This document shows, piece after piece, positions 3,447 through 33,923 of a DNA stretch of 64,000 nt (its first letter is position 1; every line of letters starts with the position of its first letter). Source of the stretch: Eubacteriales bacterium (GTDB lineage Bacteria; Bacillota; Clostridia; Oscillospirales; CAG-382); assembly GCA_045595165.1 (NCBI GenBank), contig JAZNZY010000021.1, positions 51,382 to 115,381 of the forward strand. The letters run 5' to 3'. The position numbers and the translations under genes were made by a program. The notes below the pieces were generated by a model that was not told where the DNA came from, did no database searches, and was given only the letters and a program-made list of their open reading frames with translations.

Positions 3447-4502
3447 TTAAGACAGATATTCTTTCATATGCAAAGCAATATTTTCGCCCCAGACGGCACA
3501 GCCCTCGTCGTGAGGATGTCCGCCGAACACGGGTAAATCCACGTCCCCGCCCTCGCACAGGAAGCGTGTGTTATCAAAGCAGCGGAAGAAGGTGTTTTTA
3601 ATATATTCGTTTACCTTTTTGCAATTTTTGGCGGCGGATTCGGGATATTCAAAGGGAGGCGCGGTCTGTACGACAACGCATATCCCGCATTTTCCCAGAA
3701 TGCCCGCAACACGAGTGATATCTCTGCATATATCTTGGGCACTTCTGCCGTGAAGAAGATCGTTTGTGCCAAGGCAGATAACGCAAATATCGCAATCCTT
3801 CGCTCTTTCCAGCCAAGCGGCATCGGATGCGGCATCGGATGCGCGGGCGGAGCCTATGCCAAGGTTATAAAAGGAATATTCCCTTCCCAGCTTTTCTGCG
3901 GCTACTGCGCACCAATGGGCGTAGCGGTTGGGAGTTGAGCCGATACCCTGGGTAATGGAATCTCCGAGGAAGCAGATGCGTTTTTTCACTTCCCTCTTTA
4001 CCTGCACGGTTAAAGGTACGGGAACAAAAGGAGTGCGGACCCAAGCGCCGTTTTCATAAATAAAGGTGGGGATAATTATTTCCTCGTGGCAGGGAAGCTT
4101 TTTGCCCTTAAATGCGTATTCCACGCAGAGATATTCGCCTCTACCCGCTTTGATTTTCACCGTGTCGGTAAAAAAGCGTTCACCGGGAAGAATGTTTTTA
4201 TATGATGCGCCTTCAAAAAGTATTTCTGTAAATTTTTCGGGCTGTGCGGGGTTTTCCATACCGCAACGGGGAACTACGCCTACGCGGGCGCAGGATATCT
4301 GCCACTCGCCGCAAAGCATATTCGCCACGGAGCGGGACCCGTCCGCAAAGGTGGAATCCACCGTGTTGCCGAACATAAAGCGGTATTCGCTTCCCCCTGC
4401 AAAAACCTTGTAATATATTCTGCAAAGGTGCTCTTTGCCGTCTGATTTAAAATATGTCTGGTCAGCGCTTGACGCCAAAGTATCGGAAACGAAAGTATGC
4501 AT
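3447..4502 (-). CDS. SGNH/GDSL family hydrolase with an N-terminal domain of about 165 aa of unknown function
   Basis: Block I FLGDSITQG, block III CLGTNDL and a C-terminal D/H block GGHPHDEG. RBS aaaggag lies upstream. Confidence 0.8.
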   Translation of the reverse strand: MHTFVSDTLASSADQTYFKSDGKEHLCRIYYKVFAGGSEYRFMFGNTVDSTFADGSRSVANMLCGEWQISCARVGVVPRCGMENPAQPEKFTEILFEGASYKNILPGERFFTDTVKIKAGRGEYLCVEYAFKGKKLPCHEEIIIPTFIYENGAWVRTPFVPVPLTVQVKREVKKRICFLGDSITQGIGSTPNRYAHWCAVAAEKLGREYSFYNLGIGSARASDAASDAAWLERAKDCDICVICLGTNDLLHGRSAQDICRDITRVAGILGKCGICVVVQTAPPFEYPESAAKNCKKVNEYIKNTFFRCFDNTRFLCEGGDVDLPVFGGHPHDEGCAVWGENIALHMKEYLS

Positions 4503-4527: not shown

Positions 4528-5400
4528 TCAAATATAATCGGATAAAAGATGAAGCTGTGTTTGTTTTTCCGGATTTTTGCAGAATTTGTTGAACTCTTGC
4601 ACTAGTTCAGAAAAGGATGCGTCCTTTTCTATAACGTTTCCGTCATTGTCAATATATTCGCTACAAAACTCCATGCTATAAAACAAACCGCAAGGAACAA
4701 CCATAAAAGGACTGTTCAATTTAAAAACACGCTTTTTACGCCAAAGGTCCCTCTTAACGTAAACGCCTTTTTCGTCATACGAAGGCTGAAGAGAATCATC
4801 GTCAAGCGGTTCTTCGGAAAAATAAACAGCATTGTATTTTTTATCTTTCTCTGTAAAGAAGGTGTGCAATTCAGCCGCGGTTATTTCTTTGAAAAAACGT
4901 TTTTGGGAATCCCAATACCAGCAATAGATAAACAAGTTCCGTTTAACAAAAAAATCTGCAATACTTAACACCGCTTTTTCCGTCCAATAGCCGCTTGGAG
5001 AAAAGGTTTTGTATTTTATTTTGGGCTGCTTGCAAAAAGATATGGGATTATCAAACAGTTGGCAAGAGGGAGAATAATCAATTTTTACAGGCGGAAGCTT
5101 TTTCTCCTTGTTGCAAGCCGTACACTTGCAGATGATGTTTATTTCTTTAAAATCTTCTGTATCTTCTCTGCGAACATAATTAAAGGAAATGCTGAAAAAA
5201 TCATTTTTACACGAGCATTTCATAACAGGAGGATATTTTTCTTGTATAAGATCATACCAATAATCCGCACTGTCCAGCATAAAATAAGATTTATCGGTTC
5301 GGGTGGTTGCAACGCCTACACCCTCATCTCGAATGTAACGAATTTGAAATTCGTTTTCGCCGTCCGAAGTCACGATCGGTTTGGAAACAAAAACTTGCAT
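4528..5400 (-). CDS. hypothetical protein (Cys-rich, AT-rich gene)
   Basis: 290-aa ORF with a good RBS (aaaggag). Visibly more AT-rich than its neighbours. CSC...CKCTAC cysteine cluster. No family recognised. Confidence 0.65.
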   Translation of the reverse strand: MQVFVSKPIVTSDGENEFQIRYIRDEGVGVATTRTDKSYFMLDSADYWYDLIQEKYPPVMKCSCKNDFFSISFNYVRREDTEDFKEINIICKCTACNKEKKLPPVKIDYSPSCQLFDNPISFCKQPKIKYKTFSPSGYWTEKAVLSIADFFVKRNLFIYCWYWDSQKRFFKEITAAELHTFFTEKDKKYNAVYFSEEPLDDDSLQPSYDEKGVYVKRDLWRKKRVFKLNSPFMVVPCGLFYSMEFCSEYIDNDGNVIEKDASFSELVQEFNKFCKNPEKQTQLHLLSDYI

Positions 5401-5450
5401 AATATCACTCCTTTAAGGTGAGTATATCACGGAAGAAGAGAAAAATCAAG

Positions 5451-5775
5451 GCGTTTGCGCGGAGCGCAACATCATTGATGCGAAGCATCACATCGTTTGC
5501 ACGAAGTGGAACAAATCACGCCGTAGGCGTGTATGGAATCCGCAACTTGTTGCGGCATGGAATCAAGGCGGCGCCGTGTATGGAATCCGCAGCTTGTCTG
5601 CGGTATGGAATCAACACGAAGTGTTGAATGTAATCAATCCGAAGGTGAATACACGCTGACGCGTGATGCCATACGCCTAACGGTGATTCCATACACCCTG
5701 CGGGTGATTCCATGCCAATCCTTATGCACCCCAAAAGCGCAAAGCGTTTTCGGGGGACCCCGCTTCGGATTGGAT
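5451..5775. repeat. mini-hairpin array D1 (variable short palindromes separated by TATGGAAT / ATTCCATA octamers) 3' of tRNA-Ala
   Basis: Octamers at 5532, 5556, 5579, 5604 and 5627 (TATGGAAT type), then 5665, 5686 and 5707 (reverse-complement type). Hairpins include 5476-5490, 5517-5531, 5540-5555, 5587-5603, 5612-5626 and 5694-5706. Confidence 0.85.
5727..5762 (+). repeat. Rep-C copy (CACCCCAAAA-hairpin-TTTTCGGGGGACCCCG) nested in the loop of the last D1 hairpin
   Basis: caccccaaaagcgcaaagcgttttcgggggaccccg sits between ccaatcc (5715-5721) and ggattgg (5768-5774). Confidence 0.8.
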
Positions 5776-5776
5776 A

Positions 5777-5809
5777 GAAAAAAGACCGTTCGATGAACGG
5801 TCTTTTTTC
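5777..5809 (-). terminator. rho-independent terminator of tRNA-Ala
   Basis: agaccgttc-gat-gaacggtct flanked by A and T runs, directly after the tRNA CCA end. Confidence 0.85.
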
Positions 5810-5810
5810 T

Positions 5811-5885
5811 GGTGGAGCATACGGGACTCGAACCCGTGACCCCAACACTGCCAGTGTTGTGCGCTCCCAGCTGCGCTAATGCCCC
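5811..5885 (-). tRNA. tRNA-Ala (anticodon GGC), CCA encoded
   Basis: Minus strand reads GGGGCAT-TA-GCGCAGCTGGGAGCGC...CTGGCAG loop...ACGGG-TTCGAGT-CCCGT-ATGCTCC-A-CCA. The G3:U70 alanine identity pair is present. Confidence 0.93.
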
Positions 5886-5941
5886 GTCGAGGCAAATTAT
5901 AACATACGGTGCACGCGTTTGTCAATAATCTGCCGTAAAAA

Positions 5942-6718: not shown

Positions 6719-7890
6719 TTGGAAAGGTCCTTAACGAATTCGTTTATACGCAAAATTGCTTTTTTAATATGGGTTGCGGAGTATGCGTAGGAAATACGGG
6801 CATAGCCCTCTCCGCTTTCGCCGAATGCGTTTCCGGGGACTATTGCCACTCCTTTTTCGTTCAAAAGCCGTTCGCAGAATTCCTCCGAAGACATACCGAA
6901 ACGGGAAATATCCGCAAATACGTAAAACGCTCCGTCAGGCATCATACAGTCGATACCCGCTTCATGCAAGCCCTTTACGATAAGTCTGCGTCTGCCGTTG
7001 TATTCGTCACGCATATATTCGATATCCCCATCCCCGTTTTTGACCGCTTCAACGGCGGCGTACTGGGCGGTGGTAGGGGCGCACATTATACCGTACTGAT
7101 GTATCTTGTGCATCTGCGCCGTTATCTCACGGGGGGCAAGGGTGTATCCCATACGCCAGCCCGTCATAGCGTAGGCTTTTGAAAATCCGTTTGCCACGAT
7201 AGTACGCTCCCGCATACCATCAAGAGAAGCGATGGAAACGTGCTTTGCGCCGTATGTAAGCTCTGCATATATCTCATCGGAAACAACCACGAGATCGTGC
7301 TTGATGATCACGGGCGCGATGGCTTCAAGCTGTTCTTTTGTCATTATAGAACCGGTGGGGTTATTGGGGAAGGGCAAAACAAGCGCTTTTGTTTTTGGAG
7401 TTATGTGCGCTTCCAGTTCTTCCGCCGTGAGAACGAATCCGTTTTCCTTTTTCAAAGGAAGTATAACGGGCACGCCTCCTGCCATAGTAACCAGAGGATC
7501 GTAACACACGAAGGAGGGCTGGGGCACGATAACCTCATCTCCCGGATCAACGATTGCACGGAGCGCGAGATCGATAGCCTCGCTTCCTCCCACGGTAACC
7601 AGAATTTCATCCTTGGGGTCATAGGTAAGACCGAAGCGGCGGAGTGCATATTTCGATAATTCCACACGCAGTTCCATAAGACCGCTGTTGGAGGTGTAGT
7701 AGGTCCTGCCCTCCTCAAGAGAGCGTATACCTGCTTCACGGATATGCCAGGGAGTGATAAAATCGGGCTGACCTACGGTGAGGGCGACCACGTCTTTGCG
7801 GTTCTCAAGCATATCGAAAAATTTTCTTATTCCCGAAGGCTGCAAGGAGCAAGCCCTTTGGGAAAGGATTTTGCTGTAGTCCATTACCAA
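6715..7890 (-). CDS. pyridoxal-phosphate-dependent aminotransferase (class I/II, AspC-like)
   Basis: SGIRKFFD near the N-terminus, NPTG, and SFSKAYAMTGWRMGY (PLP lysine motif). The start may instead be the Met at 7884. Confidence 0.85.
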   Translation of the reverse strand: MVMDYSKILSQRACSLQPSGIRKFFDMLENRKDVVALTVGQPDFITPWHIREAGIRSLEEGRTYYTSNSGLMELRVELSKYALRRFGLTYDPKDEILVTVGGSEAIDLALRAIVDPGDEVIVPQPSFVCYDPLVTMAGGVPVILPLKKENGFVLTAEELEAHITPKTKALVLPFPNNPTGSIMTKEQLEAIAPVIIKHDLVVVSDEIYAELTYGAKHVSIASLDGMRERTIVANGFSKAYAMTGWRMGYTLAPREITAQMHKIHQYGIMCAPTTAQYAAVEAVKNGDGDIEYMRDEYNGRRRLIVKGLHEAGIDCMMPDGAFYVFADISRFGMSSEEFCERLLNEKGVAIVPGNAFGESGEGYARISYAYSATHIKKAILRINEFVKDLSK

Positions 7891-30350: not shown

Positions 30351-30397
30351 GTATTGACAAACCAAAAGACTTGTGATATACTTTACAAGTCGAACAC

Positions 30398-30474
30398 GGG
30401 GGCTTAGCTCAGTTGGTTAGAGCACCTGCCTTACAAGCAGGGGGTCACAGGTTCGAGTCCTGTAGCCCCCACCA
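30398..30474 (+). tRNA. tRNA-Val (anticodon TAC), CCA encoded
   Basis: GGGGGCT-TA-GCTCAGTTGGTTAGAGC-A-CCTGC-CTTACAA-GCAGG-GGGTC-ACAGG-TTCGAGT-CCTGT-AGCCCCC-A-CCA. Confidence 0.93.
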
Positions 30475-30508
30475 AAAAAGAACGAAGCACAAGCTTCGTT
30501 CTTTTTTT
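30475..30508 (+). terminator. rho-independent terminator of tRNA-Val
   Basis: gaacgaagc-acaa-gcttcgttc followed by T7. Confidence 0.85.
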
Positions 30509-30510
30509 AT

Positions 30511-30684
30511 CCAAGCCGACTGTTCAAGGCGGCTTGGTATGGCATCAACGCGCTTTTGCGCGTTGTATGTAATTGCGGCGCACGCCGCGTATGGCATTTC
30601 AGTCGGCTTGATTACATACCGCAACAAGTTGCGGATTCCATACACGCCTATCGGCGTGATTACATACAACGGCTTCCGCCGTTG
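30511..30684. repeat. mini-hairpin array D2 (same architecture as D1) 3' of tRNA-Val
   Basis: Octamers TATGGCAT 30538, TATGTAAT 30566 and TATGGCAT 30590, then ATTACATA 30611, ATTCCATA 30635 and ATTACATA 30659. Six different hairpins lie between them. 30619-30658 matches the reverse complement of 5517-5555 at 39 identical positions plus a 1-nt indel. Confidence 0.85.
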
Positions 30685-30704
30685 ATTTTTGACATTCCTC
30701 TTTA

Positions 30705-30733
30705 TTGACAAAATTTTACTCGGGTGATATAAT
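30705..30733 (+). promoter_or_regulatory. consensus sigma-A promoter (TTGACA-17-TATAAT)
   Basis: ttgaca at 30705-30710, tataat at 30728-30733. Confidence 0.7.
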
Positions 30734-30760
30734 ATTTTCCGCCCAAGAATATATACAGAG

Positions 30761-31657
30761 GTGAAAAAGGTGAATATTTTTCACAGATTCAAAAATAAAA
30801 AAGTACAGTTCCTGGTGAATATGGTAATGATAACCATCGGCTGTGCGGCATACGCGGCGGGAGTTTTCCTGTTTTTGGACCCCAACGCCCTTGCATCGGG
30901 GGGAATTTCGGGTGTATCTATTATACTCAGCCACTTGATCGGCATTTTCCCCACGGGTACCTGGATAATCATACTTAACGTGCCCCTGCTGATAATCGCC
31001 ACGTGGAAATTCGGATTCAAGTTCCTTTTCACTACCATATACGCCATAATAATGTCTTCCCTCTTTATGAACCTGGGTGCGGAATATATCGGCGCCGCCA
31101 CTAACGATCCTATGCTTGCCTCTTTTGCGGGTCCCGTGCTGGTTTCCATAGGAATTGCCACCATATTCCACGCAGGCGCATCCACCGGCGGTACGGATAT
31201 TCTGGTAAAATTGATGCGTCTTAAATTCAAGCATATCTCCACCGGCACTATCTTTATGATATTCGACGTTATGGTTATTATCGCATCCGCTATCTCCTTT
31301 AAGCGGTTAGAATTGTCCATATACGCCGGTGTTTGCGTAGTCGTTCAGACCATCGTGGTAGACAAGCTGCTTTACGGCTTTGACAGTGCGAAGATGATAT
31401 ATATAATGAGCGAGAAAAACGATATTATCACCCAGCGTCTTCTGAATGAGCTGGACGTGGGCGCAACCATCGTTCACTCCCACGGCGGATACACCGGCAA
31501 AAATCAGCCCGTAATAATGTGCGTGCTTAAAAAGCAACAGCTTCCCAGAGCAAAAGAGCTTATACGCGCGGAGGATAACGGTGCGTTCCTTATAGTAACA
31601 AATGCAACGGAGATACTGGGGCAGGGTTACAAATCCCACGACACCGCCGACTTGTAG
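30761..31657 (+). CDS. YitT family membrane protein (DUF2179 C-terminal domain)
   Basis: GTG start. TM-rich N-terminus with ASGGISGVSIIL. C-terminal GATIVHSHGGYTG...FLIVTNATEILGQGY. Confidence 0.8.
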   Translation: MKKVNIFHRFKNKKVQFLVNMVMITIGCAAYAAGVFLFLDPNALASGGISGVSIILSHLIGIFPTGTWIIILNVPLLIIATWKFGFKFLFTTIYAIIMSSLFMNLGAEYIGAATNDPMLASFAGPVLVSIGIATIFHAGASTGGTDILVKLMRLKFKHISTGTIFMIFDVMVIIASAISFKRLELSIYAGVCVVVQTIVVDKLLYGFDSAKMIYIMSEKNDIITQRLLNELDVGATIVHSHGGYTGKNQPVIMCVLKKQQLPRAKELIRAEDNGAFLIVTNATEILGQGYKSHDTADL

Positions 31658-32426: not shown

Positions 32427-33923
32427 ATGAAAAAGGCTTTATCTGTTTTTCTTATTCTCCTTTTGCTGTGCGGTGTGCTGGTTTCGTGTAATGACAACAC
32501 CCCCGCAGACGATGAGAGCGGCGCAGACGTAAGCGACAGCGATTACGGCGCAGACCTGCCCGTAAAAGACCTTAACGGACGTGTGATCCGTATACTCTGC
32601 AGGGACTGGAACGCCAACGGAAGCGGATCTATACTGGGATTCGGCGGAGAGGTGATCCAGAGAGAGGATTACTCCGAGGACACGGCTTCCGCAGTTGACG
32701 TAGCAAAGGCAGAGGTAAGACGCGTTATTGAAGAAAGATACAACTGCACTCTTGAAGGACTTATTACCGCCGCCGGGCAAGCGGAACTAAACCGGATGAT
32801 CGTAGACCAGATGGCGGCAGGACTTTCGGGAGAAAACGCATACGATCTGTTGTTTGAAAATATTACCTACACCGCCGCATCCTGGCTTGACGGTGTATAC
32901 AGAGATCTGAATTCCATTGAAACTATCGACCTTTCCAACCCTTGGTGGGATCAGCAGGCGGTAAACGATCTTTCCGTTGCGGGAAGAATTTTCGTAGCCC
33001 TGGGCGATATTAACACTCAGGATAACGACGGCACCTGGCTTATCTTCTTCAACAAGCGGTTGGCAGGCGAAATGTGCTCGGATTACAACTTTTACGAAAT
33101 GGTTGATAACGACGAGTGGAATATGGACAACTTCATTACCATCTGCAAGGGTATAACCTTTGACAGCAGCGGTGACGGCAACGTAGACGAATTCGACACC
33201 TGGGCGCTGGGAACAGAAACCTATAACATATACGTTCACGCCCTTGCGGCAGGAGAAAAGGTAGTTTCCAAGGATACGGACGATATCCCCTATTTCTCCT
33301 TCCAGACCGAGGGTATGTACGATGCCCTTGCAAAAATAAGCAATTTTTACAGCGATAAAGGCACGGTTATGATCGCCGATGACGGCAGATTTTCCGGCAA
33401 GGGATACTCCAATGTGTTTGAAGCAACGGTAGTAAAAGCATTTACCGAAGGCAGAGAGCTGTTTTATATGGGCGGACTTATGAACCTTACCGCATTCCGC
33501 GCAATGGAGGACGATTTCGGTATGCTTCCCATTCCCAAGGGTAACCCCGATCAGGACAGATATTACCACTCCGTTTCCTACCACCAGACGTCCTCTCTCG
33601 CTATCCCCTATTCTGCGAAAGATCCCGAGGATCTGGGACTTATTATCGAAGCTCTCGGCGCATTGAGCAAGCAGCTCGTTACCCCCGAATATTATGACAG
33701 AACCCTGAAGCTTCAGGCTACCCGTGATGATGAATCCGGCAGAATGCTTGATATAATCTTCGATTCCCGTGTGTTCGATCTCGGCGCTATATATAATTGG
33801 GGCGGAGTGTGCGGACAGATGTATACCGCAGACCCCAACTATGCATCCCGTTTTGAGTCGGTGGCAGATAAGGCGCAAAGCGATATGGAAGAAACGCTGG
33901 AAATTCTGGTAGAATTTAATTAA
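32427..33923 (+). CDS. extracellular solute-binding lipoprotein (family 1, LplA-like), orphan
   Basis: Lipobox LLLLCGVLVSC. About 500 aa. Motifs DLSNPWWDQ and FGMLPIPKG are typical of large sugar-binding SBPs. Paralogous to 37122..38570. Confidence 0.75.
   Translation: MKKALSVFLILLLLCGVLVSCNDNTPADDESGADVSDSDYGADLPVKDLNGRVIRILCRDWNANGSGSILGFGGEVIQREDYSEDTASAVDVAKAEVRRVIEERYNCTLEGLITAAGQAELNRMIVDQMAAGLSGENAYDLLFENITYTAASWLDGVYRDLNSIETIDLSNPWWDQQAVNDLSVAGRIFVALGDINTQDNDGTWLIFFNKRLAGEMCSDYNFYEMVDNDEWNMDNFITICKGITFDSSGDGNVDEFDTWALGTETYNIYVHALAAGEKVVSKDTDDIPYFSFQTEGMYDALAKISNFYSDKGTVMIADDGRFSGKGYSNVFEATVVKAFTEGRELFYMGGLMNLTAFRAMEDDFGMLPIPKGNPDQDRYYHSVSYHQTSSLAIPYSAKDPEDLGLIIEALGALSKQLVTPEYYDRTLKLQATRDDESGRMLDIIFDSRVFDLGAIYNWGGVCGQMYTADPNYASRFESVADKAQSDMEETLEILVEFN

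Follow-up and report, generated by a model that had tools for sequence, protein, structure and literature searches.

Dispersed intergenic hairpin repeats in inverted sets are well known from proteobacteria as REP/BIME and REPIN-RAYT elements, where they are thought to act as single-stranded DNA, and several REPIN-RAYT classes occur per genome, each tied to a single-copy gene beside its own repeat. Multi-hairpin single-stranded DNA with cGNAg loops is likewise found in the complementary-strand origins of phages G4 and phiX174, the terminal repeats of parvoviruses and the telomere overhangs of Streptomyces, and other members of the PF05635/TIGR02436 protein family are encoded within 23S rRNA intervening sequences, beside stable RNA. 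The REPIN-RAYT background is said to go back to Bertels and Rainey in 2011 and Nunvar et al. in 2010. The motif Gut-1 was described as "human gut only", without a reported genomic context, second half, long-range helix (P1, see below) or function (Weinberg et al. 2010, PMC2864571).

In this study, arrays of short conserved linkers and mini-hairpins were analysed in the window, that is, the whole 64-kb stretch of DNA, both of whose tRNA genes (tRNA-Val and tRNA-Ala) were found to bear one. The two share a layout of stable-RNA gene, bidirectional terminator, first hairpin and three units of octamer plus mini-hairpin, followed by a centre, at least three inverted units and the promoter of the next gene (Table 1). 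The octamers, the 13-nt centre and the spacer hairpins described behind tRNA-Val in the original prediction are all present, every spacer of this array being a hairpin, and positions 30619-30658 do equal the reverse complement of 5517-5555 save one loop base.

Table 1. Coordinates of the two tRNA-associated arrays and of the neighbouring features in the window
Feature	Position	Strand	Basis or remark
tRNA-Val(tac), gene upstream of array	30398..30474	+	ARAGORN; Rfam tRNA, 77.7 bits
tRNA-Val's own promoter	30354-30382		Consensus scan
Bidirectional intrinsic terminator (A-run, 15-nt perfect arms, T-run)	30474..30507		Inverted repeat I1, 100% complementary
First hairpin H	30511..30537	+	Inverted repeat I2; minimum-energy fold; covariation, 57 sequences
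Long-range helix P1, 5' strand (5' arm and loop of H, caagccgactg)	30512-30522	+	
Closed (left) half	30538..30597	+	In the family, the tRNA-sense strand is the strand read
Left octamers	TATGGCAT at 30538, TATGTAAT at 30566, TATGGCAT at 30590		
Closed-half mini-hairpins	30546-30565, 30574-30589	+	
Centre, 13 nt	30598..30610	+	
P1, 3' strand in centre (cagtcggcttg)	30600-30610	+	Partner of 30512-30522
Open (right) half	30611..30684	-	In the family, the strand opposite the tRNA is the strand read
Right octamers	ATTACATA at 30611, ATTCCATA at 30635, ATTACATA at 30659		
Open-half mini-hairpins	30619-30634, 30643-30658, 30667-30684		
Right edge TTGATT(T)	30682-30687	+	Acts as -35 in many copies
YitT promoter TTGACA-17-TATAAT	30705-30733	+	Consensus scan; right-edge promoters in many loci
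YitT-family membrane protein gene	30761..31657	+	Pfam PF02588 + PF10035; outside the element; orthologous-locus marker
tRNA-Ala(ggc)	5810-5885	-	ARAGORN; Rfam
Bidirectional terminator of tRNA-Ala	5776-5810	-	Inverted-repeat search
First hairpin of array 1, interrupted by an inserted hairpin of ~40 nt	5715..5773	-	Read from sequence
Closed half and centre of array 1	5635..5714	-	Octamers 5707-5714, 5686-5693, 5666-5673 (plus-strand ruler)
Open half of array 1, five units	5516..5634	+ (opposite tRNA)	Octamers 5627, 5604, 5579, 5556, 5532
Promoter TTGATT-17-TATACT, far edge of array 1	5421..5449	-	Drives ORF 5400..4528

Relation to known repeats and position behind stable-RNA genes

With reference to REPIN-RAYT, the arrays share dispersed inverted hairpin repeats, several classes and a cognate gene beside a copy; nevertheless, the REPIN-RAYT partner is a Y1/HUH transposase and the candidate partner of the arrays a four-helix-bundle (4HB) protein of PF05635, the conserved palindrome with 5' GTAG is replaced by free-sequence hairpins of 12-20 nt with a conserved linker, the arrays lie strictly 3' of stable-RNA genes, and the phylum differs. 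Neither a conserved palindrome with a GTAG-type tetranucleotide in the arrays nor an IS200-like Y1 transposase flanking them was observed, and among the called neighbours PF05635 was the recurrent flanking gene. The single-stranded multi-hairpin elements resemble the arrays in C-G-closed GNA/GNNA mini-hairpins, an enclosing stem and recognition by a dedicated protein, which is putative for the arrays, but they start or end the replication of phages, viruses and linear replicons, whereas the arrays occupy many chromosomal intergenic sites and give no indication of a replication role. A CRISPR array, which consists of 21-48-nt repeats and unique non-palindromic spacers of 26-72 nt in one orientation with cas genes nearby, was rejected, as the constant part here is 8-10 nt, the variable part a palindrome of 10-20 nt and the halves are two and inverted, with cas genes absent from the window's Pfam hits flanking the arrays. 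The internal hairpins also differ from intrinsic terminators, being followed by an octamer and no T-run, and the true terminator is separate; only the last hairpin of the tRNA-Val array, with its ATTTTT, scores as terminator-like.

A pattern scan disclosed the same layout in at least 120 species-level Oscillospirales gut genomes, the record titles of these loci being nearly all Acutalibacteraceae, Oscillospiraceae, Eubacteriales or Clostridia MAGs, which places the family, like Gut-1, in gut Clostridia. Among the fetched loci, the octamer pattern +++--- prevails and units are often more numerous in the right half. The oriented, tRNA-linked unit originally proposed from two loci was recovered in the other tRNA 3' flanks of these loci, where 55 of 130 arrays lie 49-66 nt past a tRNA 3' end, downstream in each case and behind at least 15 isotypes, while last-in-cluster tRNAs carry units downstream in 51 of 80 cases and upstream in 1, about 36% of them being without units by a strict count. 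Many arrays for which no tRNA was called lie behind tmRNA, 5S rRNA or an RNA with a tRNA-like ...CCA end, and the arrays constantly occupy the gap that separates the stable-RNA terminator from the following promoter. A small set of terminator sequence types recurs ahead of arrays in other species and behind other isotypes; loci L247 and L251, however, have a common terminator and different arrays, which weakens the view that a unit always includes the terminator. A conserved module resembling the tRNA T-loop follows some arrays. No coherent regulon was recognized among the genes downstream of the arrays; in the window, the ORF behind array 1 (290 aa) has no Pfam match and an exact-protein look-up of the YitT protein gave zero matches. 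In IMG/VR, two array patterns returned nothing but simple tandem repeats and the 4HB profile no match, so the element is not phage-borne in that collection.

Two halves built for opposite strands

The best-supported structural feature is the pairing of the centre (gtcggcttg) with the first hairpin (caagccgac), which had been offered originally as an alternative pairing. The 8-bp core of this 11-bp helix, P1, is paired in 57 of 57 sequences, with compensatory changes at five of its eight pairs and 38 doubly changed cells, a covariation that 0 of 500 shuffles equalled, and P1 accepts 22 G-U pairs on the tRNA-sense strand. The same helix is found in array 1, between the 5' arm (5763-5773) and the centre (5635-5645), with the sequences caatccgaagg and ccttcggattg (minus strand). 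In the closed half, the 5' arm of H is bound to the centre and encloses three mini-hairpins separated by octamers. A tRNA-like cloverleaf was rejected for this half, given its 8-nt linkers and the 11-bp length of P1. Across 76 related arrays, an end-to-end stem of at least 4 bp was present in 91% of the 272 spacers as against 2.8% of shuffled ones, and 12 of the 16 TATGKMAT sites within the 64 kb sit in the two arrays, both of which uphold the view that the pattern is not due to chance. Hairpin sequence varies freely, with 180 distinct versions in the 272 spacers, and changes by compensation, conservation being limited to the linkers of 8-10 nt, which are kept as sequence. Fold z-scores were -5.9 and -5.3, and the minimum-energy fold consists of the centre pairing and separate hairpins.

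Left and right halves are each adapted to a different strand. In the family, left-half loops are cGNAg or GNNA on the tRNA-sense strand, whereas those of the right half read GNA/GNNA solely on the other strand; the ratio of G-T to A-C mismatches is 16:4 on the left and 2:15 on the right, and on the TATNNNAY strand GNA/GNNA loops outnumber their complements by 107:2, 19:1 and 6:0. In the window, the right-half loops behind tRNA-Val (GATA, GGAA) are read on the minus strand, as are the closed-half loops of array 1 (GCA, GTTA, GTCA), and the open-half loops of array 1, such as GTA and GAA, on the plus strand. The TATGKMAT and TATATCAT types have the closed half on the tRNA-sense strand and functional strands running 5' to 3' centre-wards from both sides; the GTGAAAT type and the L087 array display the reverse, divergent arrangement, and in the closed half of the Gut-1 type the GNA loops occur antisense to the tRNA, on the strand opposite that of the Rfam motif. 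Tetraloops of GNYA are as frequent as GNRA, and the triloops are cGNAg. Such cGNAg triloops with GNYA tetraloops are the signature of stable DNA mini-hairpins, not of RNA. Neither a DNA nor an RNA form explains the opposite strands of the halves and the strand differences from type to type.

These asymmetries also bear on the claim that, relative to the tRNA, both arrays share one polarity. Since reverse complementing leaves the octamer layout [X-TATGKMAT]n[ATKMCATA-X]m unchanged, the octamers by themselves do not establish this, but the polarity is real and is displayed by the pairing of H with the centre, the tRNA-distal 40-nt core shared by both arrays and the loop asymmetry.

Linker types and the linked PF05635 protein

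The linker types TATGKMAT, TATATCAT, GTGAAAT and ATGAAGC coexist; of these, GTGAAAT is known from Rfam as the orphan motif Gut-1 (RF01706), whose model matches GTGAAAT-type arrays in L076, L087 and L139. In L076, the match covers the first 77 nt of a full-layout array, ordered as tRNA, terminator, first hairpin, units, centre complementary to the first hairpin, inverted units and promoter. As the Rfam motif is the left part of one type, the name Gut-1 superfamily was adopted. The likeness lies in tandem mini-hairpins, a conserved linker of 7-8 nt and human-gut Clostridia, whereas the Rfam model comprises just three hairpins on one strand and window-type arrays have two halves. The model gave no match in the window at the gathering score (50 bits), Rfam finding only tRNAs there, and none in 30380-30760 even at E up to 10; the window array shows tandem hairpins with a conserved short linker, but this is TATGKMAT instead of GUGAAAU. 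We infer the homology of the window array and Gut-1 from the full layout shared in L076 and L139, not from sequence.

Comparison of the orthologous tRNA-Val/YitT locus showed that five relatives are all occupied by some array, of differing types, so the array is present while the linker type has been replaced, and neither a target-site duplication nor an empty site was seen among the five. Resemblance of TATGTAA to the XerD arm of dif was dismissed by eye, the relative orientation and spacing of the arms being wrong, and a start-stop mini-ORF (AUG UAA in TATGTAAT) was rejected because it is missing from the GA, TATATCAT and GTGAAAT types. A consensus scan found no promoter within the array, and attempts to read the octamer by hand as a -10 element did not convince.

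PF05635 is a co-occurring protein family: a small Avd-like 4HB gene is carried by about 20 of 120 array loci among the matches listed, directly behind one array per type, and in the reverse test an array was present at 8 of 8 loci from four proteins and at 43 of 48 metagenome loci. The protein scores 65-68 bits against Pfam PF05635 (cut-off 33.8) and 67 bits against TIGR02436 (cut-off 24), and its predicted structure (pLDDT 94.9) has a four-helix-bundle fold whose nearest solved relatives are 2RLD, 2GSC and Avd (4DWL, 8UBE) at TM 0.76-0.87, with five chains listed per entry; it harbors no recognisable nuclease or recombinase motif. Avd, the accessory variability determinant of diversity-generating retroelements (DGRs), shares this fold and acts bound to structured nucleic acid, but a DGR has a reverse transcriptase and template/variable repeats, whereas the candidate partner of the 4HB protein here is a repeat array and not a retroelement. 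The reverse transcriptase (RVT) family was absent from the called genes up to 1.2-2.5 kb from seven 4HB proteins, and no template/variable repeat pair was noticed in a non-systematic look at the same range. Nor did the called neighbours of the arrays include a transposase, integrase or RAYT.

Paralog type tracks linker type without exception in the sample, as paralog A was recorded with TATGKMAT arrays (61) and paralog B with TATATCAT arrays (8, plus 3 missed by the sequence pattern) and never with TATGKMAT, the sole A/TATATCAT entry being the second copy of a tandem pair in L239. In the loop joining helix 2 to helix 3, the two paralogs differ at F/Y42, S/T46R, Q49N, P51G and L54K. This co-variation could simply reflect inheritance of array and gene as one block. 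Further PF05635 genes have private short repeats upstream too. The window has no 4HB gene, and the GTGAAAT and ATGAAGC types yielded no cognate protein; a few 4HB genes stand without an array (L231, L234), and paralog B includes several truncated proteins. At GA-type loci, the ribosome-binding site of the 4HB gene comes right after the array and a promoter-sized space is absent, so the 4HB mRNA must contain array sequence.

Explanations of the arrays and their meaning

We tentatively prefer, as a plausible but by no means secure reading, a partnership of repeat and protein akin to REPIN-RAYT, with the arrays as putative cis sites of cognate Avd-like proteins. The arrays would be cis-acting binding platforms for such a protein, which is likely oligomeric, as are its five-chain solved relatives, and which would recognise the linkers where these are exposed as single strands between highly stable mini-hairpins, with transiently single-stranded DNA as the most likely substrate and read-through RNA as the alternative. 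The array linked to the gene may serve as the master copy or be autoregulated, and the solo arrays, among them the two in the window, may be its dispersed partners, as REPINs are to a RAYT gene. From their fast turnover and their stacking beside tRNA, the arrays appear to be spread or exchanged, and they may be selfish or domesticated; as no target-site duplication or empty site was seen, replacement and stacking are the sole signs of this mobility. Insulation of the next gene from the very strong stable-RNA promoter would be a likely by-product.

A structured RNA, either a Gut-1-type trailer or a small RNA made by read-through from the stable-RNA promoter, is possible though rather unlikely. 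The three hairpins of its closed half would make up a nuclease-resistant domain, which would bind or titrate a protein (Avd-like or other) or mark read-through for processing, and the downstream gene would thereby be insulated. Gut-1 is classed as RNA by both Rfam and Weinberg et al. 2010 (PMC2864571), Avd in the DGR particle (8UBE and related entries) binds structured RNA, and the G-U pairs of P1, the tRNA-sense orientation of the closed half in TATGKMAT and TATATCAT arrays, the array sequence in the GA-type 4HB mRNA and the terminator-like last hairpin all agree with it. Yet a full terminator separates the tRNA from the array, the consensus scan disclosed no sigma-70-like promoter inside or directed into the arrays, and the open half is optimised antisense with no evident leftward promoter; the GNYA and cGNAg loops and the antisense loops of the Gut-1-type closed half likewise speak against RNA.

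A host-encoded bidirectional barrier or insulator that is independent of the 4HB protein seems improbable. Whichever half is met first by RNA polymerase or the replisome would extrude stable hairpins on the displaced or lagging strand, which would halt read-through or handle collisions beside highly transcribed stable-RNA genes. Such a role would suit the constant position between terminator and promoter, the occupation of the locus in all five relatives and the functional strands that point at the centre from either side in the TATGKMAT and TATATCAT types, but the arrangement is divergent in the GTGAAAT type and the L087 array, about a third of last-in-cluster tRNAs lack units by the strict count given above, and the conservation and within-array uniformity of the linkers, as well as their match with protein paralogs, are left unaccounted for.

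It is very doubtful that the arrays are the joined ends of a conventional mobile element, such as a MITE with Tn7/Mu-like subterminal repeats, a tRNA-integrase att site or a REP/BIME mobilised by RAYT. The halves are indeed two-fold symmetric like terminal inverted repeats (3 versus 3-4 sites), and the location 3' of tRNA genes, the turnover and the T-loop-like motif are compatible with it; however, the recurrent neighbour is the 4HB gene and none of the enzymes concerned was seen next to an array, just 8-10 nt per unit are conserved while the rest co-varies, unlike transposase-binding sites, no target-site duplication was seen, and the IMG/VR scans found neither arrays nor the 4HB gene.

The comb fold of the original prediction, in which left and right octamers would nest-pair into a long stem with protruding mini-hairpins, as RNA or single-stranded DNA, is already disfavoured and hardly credible: though the octamers of the halves are mutually complementary and the halves switch type together (TATGTAAT/ATTACATA, TATGGAAT/ATTCCATA, TATATCAT/ATGATATA), the match is not register-specific (7.07 of 8 nested versus 7.09 of 8 non-nested), the conserved C of the centre-proximal left octamer (TATGGCAT, TATGTCAT; in the other type TATCTCAT) is unmatched in the right half, unit numbers are often greater on the right, the pairing is absent from the minimum-energy and centroid folds, and the loop and wobble asymmetry assigns the halves to different strands.

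The arrays are very common in abundant uncultured gut Clostridia, and databases have so far held only the orphan motif Gut-1. What is new here is the full anatomy, the rule of a position 3' of stable-RNA genes, the opposite-strand halves and a candidate trans-acting partner. The original prediction did not contain the opposite-strand halves, the other linker types, the identity with Gut-1 or the linked protein, and the literature on the protein family, on repeats downstream of tRNA genes and on Gut-1 gave no account of an array/protein system. Returning to the repeat/protein partnership, two orphans, Gut-1 and the large PF05635 family, are joined as one testable system, and the poorly understood Avd-like (PF05635) family obtains its first testable partner. 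If the arrays insulate or mobilise, they would be relevant to annotating and engineering tRNA-adjacent loci of gut anaerobes. As a wider and still uncertain suggestion, PF05635 proteins may be sequence-specific partners of dispersed, single-strand-folding arrays that home 3' of stable-RNA genes, which would be a new repeat/protein system, parallel to REPIN-RAYT but with a non-enzymatic, pentamer-type nucleic-acid binder and several orthogonal protein/linker pairs per genome. If true, this would explain the recurrence of the PF05635 family beside rRNA and tRNA genes.

Array anatomy and the closed-half structure

The order of features that the original prediction described behind tRNA-Val was observed to match the sequence exactly, and the 40-nt block common to arrays 1 and 2 was confirmed. 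The conserved unit is the 10-mer G-TATGKMAT-C and its complement, and 12 of the 16 TATGKMAT sites of the window fall within the two arrays. Read outward from its tRNA, array 1 comprises three units, then a centre, then five units in inverted orientation. Because the octamer layout equals its own reverse complement, it cannot alone show the claimed "same polarity", which is nevertheless shown by other features, namely the P1 helix and the asymmetry of halves and strands described below. An insertion interrupts the first hairpin of array 1 but leaves the P1 partner in the centre intact.

Features of the two arrays and their surroundings in the window
Feature	Position	Description
tRNA-Val(tac)	30398-30474	array 2 downstream
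Perfect bidirectional terminator	30474-30507	between tRNA-Val and array 2
Array 2, first hairpin	30511-30537	
Array 2, left half		TATGGCAT, hairpin, TATGTAAT, hairpin, TATGGCAT
Array 2, centre		13 nt, between left and right halves
Array 2, right half	ends at 30684	ATTACATA, hairpin, ATTCCATA, hairpin, ATTACATA, hairpin
Array 1	5516-5773	3' of tRNA-Ala(ggc), other strand
Insertion splitting array 1 first hairpin	5723-5762	~40 nt, hairpin-forming, core ccccgaaaacgctttgcgcttttgggg
290-aa ORF	4528-5400 (-)	driven by array 1 edge promoter; no Pfam match
498-aa ORF	32427-33923 (+)	downstream of YitT; no Pfam match

The 5' arm and loop of the first hairpin have their reverse complement in the centre, with which they co-vary, as in the strand pairs (first hairpin/centre) CAATCCGAAGG/CCTTCGGATTG, CAAGCCGCAGG/CCTGCGGCTTG and CAAGACCGTA/TACGGTCTTG, and in CAAGCCGACTG/CAGTCGGCTTG of the window. 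When 57 closed (tRNA-proximal) halves were aligned, the 8-bp core of this helix, P1, was paired in all 57, with double changes at five of the eight core pairs (38 cells); the observed values were reached by none of 500 shuffles, and slid controls gave 26-53% pairing. On the tRNA-sense strand, 22 G-U pairs fall in a 3-bp extension of P1. Conservation of the local first hairpin is weaker than that of P1: a single pair co-varies, and six sequences have a mismatch in it at a position where P1 remains paired. In the minimum-energy fold of 30508-30686, P1 encloses the left hairpins, and the three right hairpins fold separately beyond it; the z-scores are -5.9 on the plus and -5.3 on the minus strand. 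The earlier side remark that the centre can pair with the first hairpin was right. The comb fold proposed alongside it, in which left and right octamers pair in nested order, is wrong, since complementarity does not gain from the nested register (7.07/8 nested vs 7.09/8 non-nested) and a position-specific C in the centre-nearest left octamer has no right-half partner.

The two halves are designed for opposite strands. On the tRNA-sense strand, the non-Watson-Crick positions of the left half are 16 G-T and 4 A-C, against 2 G-T and 15 A-C in the right half. The loops show this more clearly: left-half loops include 17 cGNAg triloops and 14 GNNA tetraloops on the sense strand, where right-half loops include none of either, displaying 27 and 10 on the opposite strand. 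A count across all loci, made on the strand whose linker (the conserved stretch between mini-hairpins) reads TATNNNAY, gives ratios of GNA/GNNA loops to their complements of 107:2 for TATGKMAT, 19:1 for TATATCAT and 6:0 for TATTTCAY (complementary to GTGAAATA). The GTGAAAT type and locus L087 carry their closed-half GNA loops antisense to the tRNA; in general, therefore, the halves occupy opposite strands, with the assignment of half to strand set by linker type. The loops cGNAg and cGNNAg are classic, very stable DNA mini-hairpin loops; RNA favours GNRA and UUCG. Among the tetraloops, GNYA (13) and GNRA (11) are about equally frequent. The loop types tilt, short of proof, towards a single-stranded DNA form.

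Family size, genomic position and turnover

A scan of one genome per species, using three 10-mers at array spacing as query, disclosed at least 120 array loci. Among the matches listed, nearly all hosts were Acutalibacteraceae, Oscillospiraceae, 'Eubacteriales' or Clostridia MAGs, with human and ruminant guts as MAG sources. The commonest pattern is three forward and three reverse units; forward units nearly always number three, and reverse units anywhere from 2 to over 8. Among the 272 spacers of 76 oriented, non-identical arrays, end-to-end stems (at least 4 bp, from first to last base) were found in 247 spacers vs 2.8% of shuffled ones, 253 spacers start with C and finish with G, and 180 sequences are distinct, indicating that structure is conserved and sequence is not. 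Hairpins are drawn from a recurring pool (e.g. ccgcaacaagttgcgg, cgccgtaggcg) and shuffled between positions. Long one-directional arrays of 6-9 units were also noticed among L058 (minus strand, ~5450-5900), L099, L148, L158 and L096, some with a blockwise switch of linker (TATGGAAT units followed by TATATCAT units), and L096 carries a tandem duplication of near-identical units; these show arrays growing and recombining unit by unit.

With regard to position, 55 of 130 arrays lie 49-66 nt past a tRNA 3' end, all downstream and covering at least 15 isotypes. Generic hairpin/linker units occur within 300 nt downstream of 51 of 80 last-in-cluster tRNAs, and upstream of one. Many arrays without a called tRNA stand behind tmRNA (L095), 5S rRNA (L126, L179) or unannotated RNAs with a tRNA-like ...CCA end. 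Such pre-array stretches of 150-260 nt, ending in a tRNA-like T-arm and ...CCA (e.g. ...attcccgtacgggtcaCCA, ...gtccttgtgcccctgCCA), were seen at L083 (~1170-1400), L159 (~7520-7786) and L064 (1-60), and upstream of arrays in L061, L070, L142, L160 and L072. ARAGORN and Rfam returned no named RNA for them; these stretches could represent tRNAs of an unusual or interrupted kind, or else stable RNAs of a new sort.

The terminators between RNA gene and array belong to a few recurring sequence types. The right edge, ...TTGATTT, supplies in many copies, array 1 included, the -35 of the next gene's promoter, which often has the conserved form ...cgcttttatgcTATACT; behind array 2 stands a separate promoter of consensus sequence, that of the YitT gene. 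No consensus promoter was found by scanning inside arrays 1 and 2. Just after many arrays of the GA-type group, a conserved module (...gcgNgagttcaaatcc...aaaaatatctttttt) carries a motif resembling a tRNA T-loop, often with a second terminator next (L062, L084, L086, L118, L128, L139 at ~3466-3530, L142, L164, L247). A recurring ~45-nt motif before the pre-array terminator (..gttttcagRc...attcgtg.c...gttcaaactaccc, or ..tttagaccggttccatt..gtgtcggt) stands behind short ORFs in L076, L087, L113, L135, L176 and L177, and may be another small structured element.

A linker-agnostic scan for the same layout detected other linker types in the same genomes: TATATCAT/ATGATATA, GTGAAAT/ATTTCAC and ATGAAGC/GCTTCAT. 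The GTGAAAT arrays are matched by Gut-1 (Rfam RF01706), a motif listed as RNA from human-gut sequence only, without context or function (Weinberg et al. 2010, PMC2864571). At L076 the match covers 77 nt directly behind tRNA and terminator, spanning the first hairpin and two further hairpins with GUGAAAU linkers; beyond it come a centre with complementarity to that first hairpin, units in inverted orientation and the promoter typical of these arrays.

The locus DcrB-like gene/tRNA-Val(tac)/array/YitT is kept in relatives, whose YitT proteins are 90, 85, 83 and 71% identical to that of the window. Its array slot is always occupied, by differing arrays: TATGKMAT in the window, ATGAAGC in L251 and L252, TATATCAT remnants in L249 and L250, and in L247 a GTGAAAT array, a second terminator and a TATATCAT half-array, which looks like a newer unit inserted beside the tRNA, in front of an older one. 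At this locus, neither the window nor the relatives displayed a target duplication. Elsewhere, L177 and L178 share the array and the linked 4HB (four-helix-bundle) protein and differ in upstream sequence; in L177 other sequence replaces the tRNA and terminator left arm up to a breakpoint within the terminator loop, a rearrangement at the left edge of the element.

A candidate Avd-like protein partner

In about 20 of the at least 120 loci, a gene of 115-125 aa begins right behind the array, and its product matches PF05635 (four-helix bundle, 4HB) and TIGR02436. In the reverse test, all 8 loci of four protein-database homologues had an array immediately upstream, and a metagenome scan anchored on the protein found one in 43 of the 48 loci having enough upstream sequence. 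The tRNA ahead of the gene-linked array varies between species. Structure prediction gives, with high confidence (pLDDT 94.9), a four-helix bundle nearest to 2RLD, 2GSC and the DGR protein Avd. No homologue was detected in the 64-kb window or in an IMG/VR scan.

A divergent copy behind a TATATCAT array at L239 served as query and revealed a second paralog group, B (motif ..SSSSVYANIREANYGQS.., against ..SSSSVFANI[ST]EAQYPQS.. in group A); all three group-B proteins examined stand behind TATATCAT arrays. Over all loci, TATGKMAT arrays accompany A 61 times and B never, and TATATCAT arrays accompany B eight times, plus three missed by the sequence pattern; the lone A/TATATCAT entry is the second copy of the L239 tandem. 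Differences between A and B concentrate in the loop between helices 2 and 3.

In the loci L239 (1498-2030) and L253-L256, a frameshifted paralog-B fragment is fused in tandem to an A-like copy (L239), several B proteins are C-terminally truncated, and one B copy has a TraG/VirD4-like fragment as neighbour and an array consisting of the open half alone. This suggests that gene-linked copies are decaying and rearranging. Short direct and inverted repeats of their own also precede two unrelated PF05635 genes (L051, ~5330-5400; L153, upstream of 1542, minus strand), one with five AATTCGT and an inverted copy and the other with GATAATAGATAAT facing ATTATCTATTATC, which hints that repeat/protein pairing may be general across the family.

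The main inference of the original prediction, a targeted or functionally linked element rather than chance low complexity, was right, and the finding is real. Our data show a conserved, structured, bipartite element of a Gut-1 superfamily, bound to positions 3' of stable-RNA genes, with several coexisting and interchangeable linker types, two of them each with a matching Avd-like gene. The arrays are putative binding sites of the cognate Avd-like proteins, which would recognise the linkers exposed between the stable mini-hairpins. Arrays and 4HB gene would form, by analogy, a REPIN-RAYT-like partnership in which one copy is gene-linked and many are solo. The system may be selfish or domesticated, and would plausibly insulate the next gene from the strong stable-RNA promoter as a side effect. 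The element, a variant within a known though uncharacterised class of motifs, now has a candidate protein partner.
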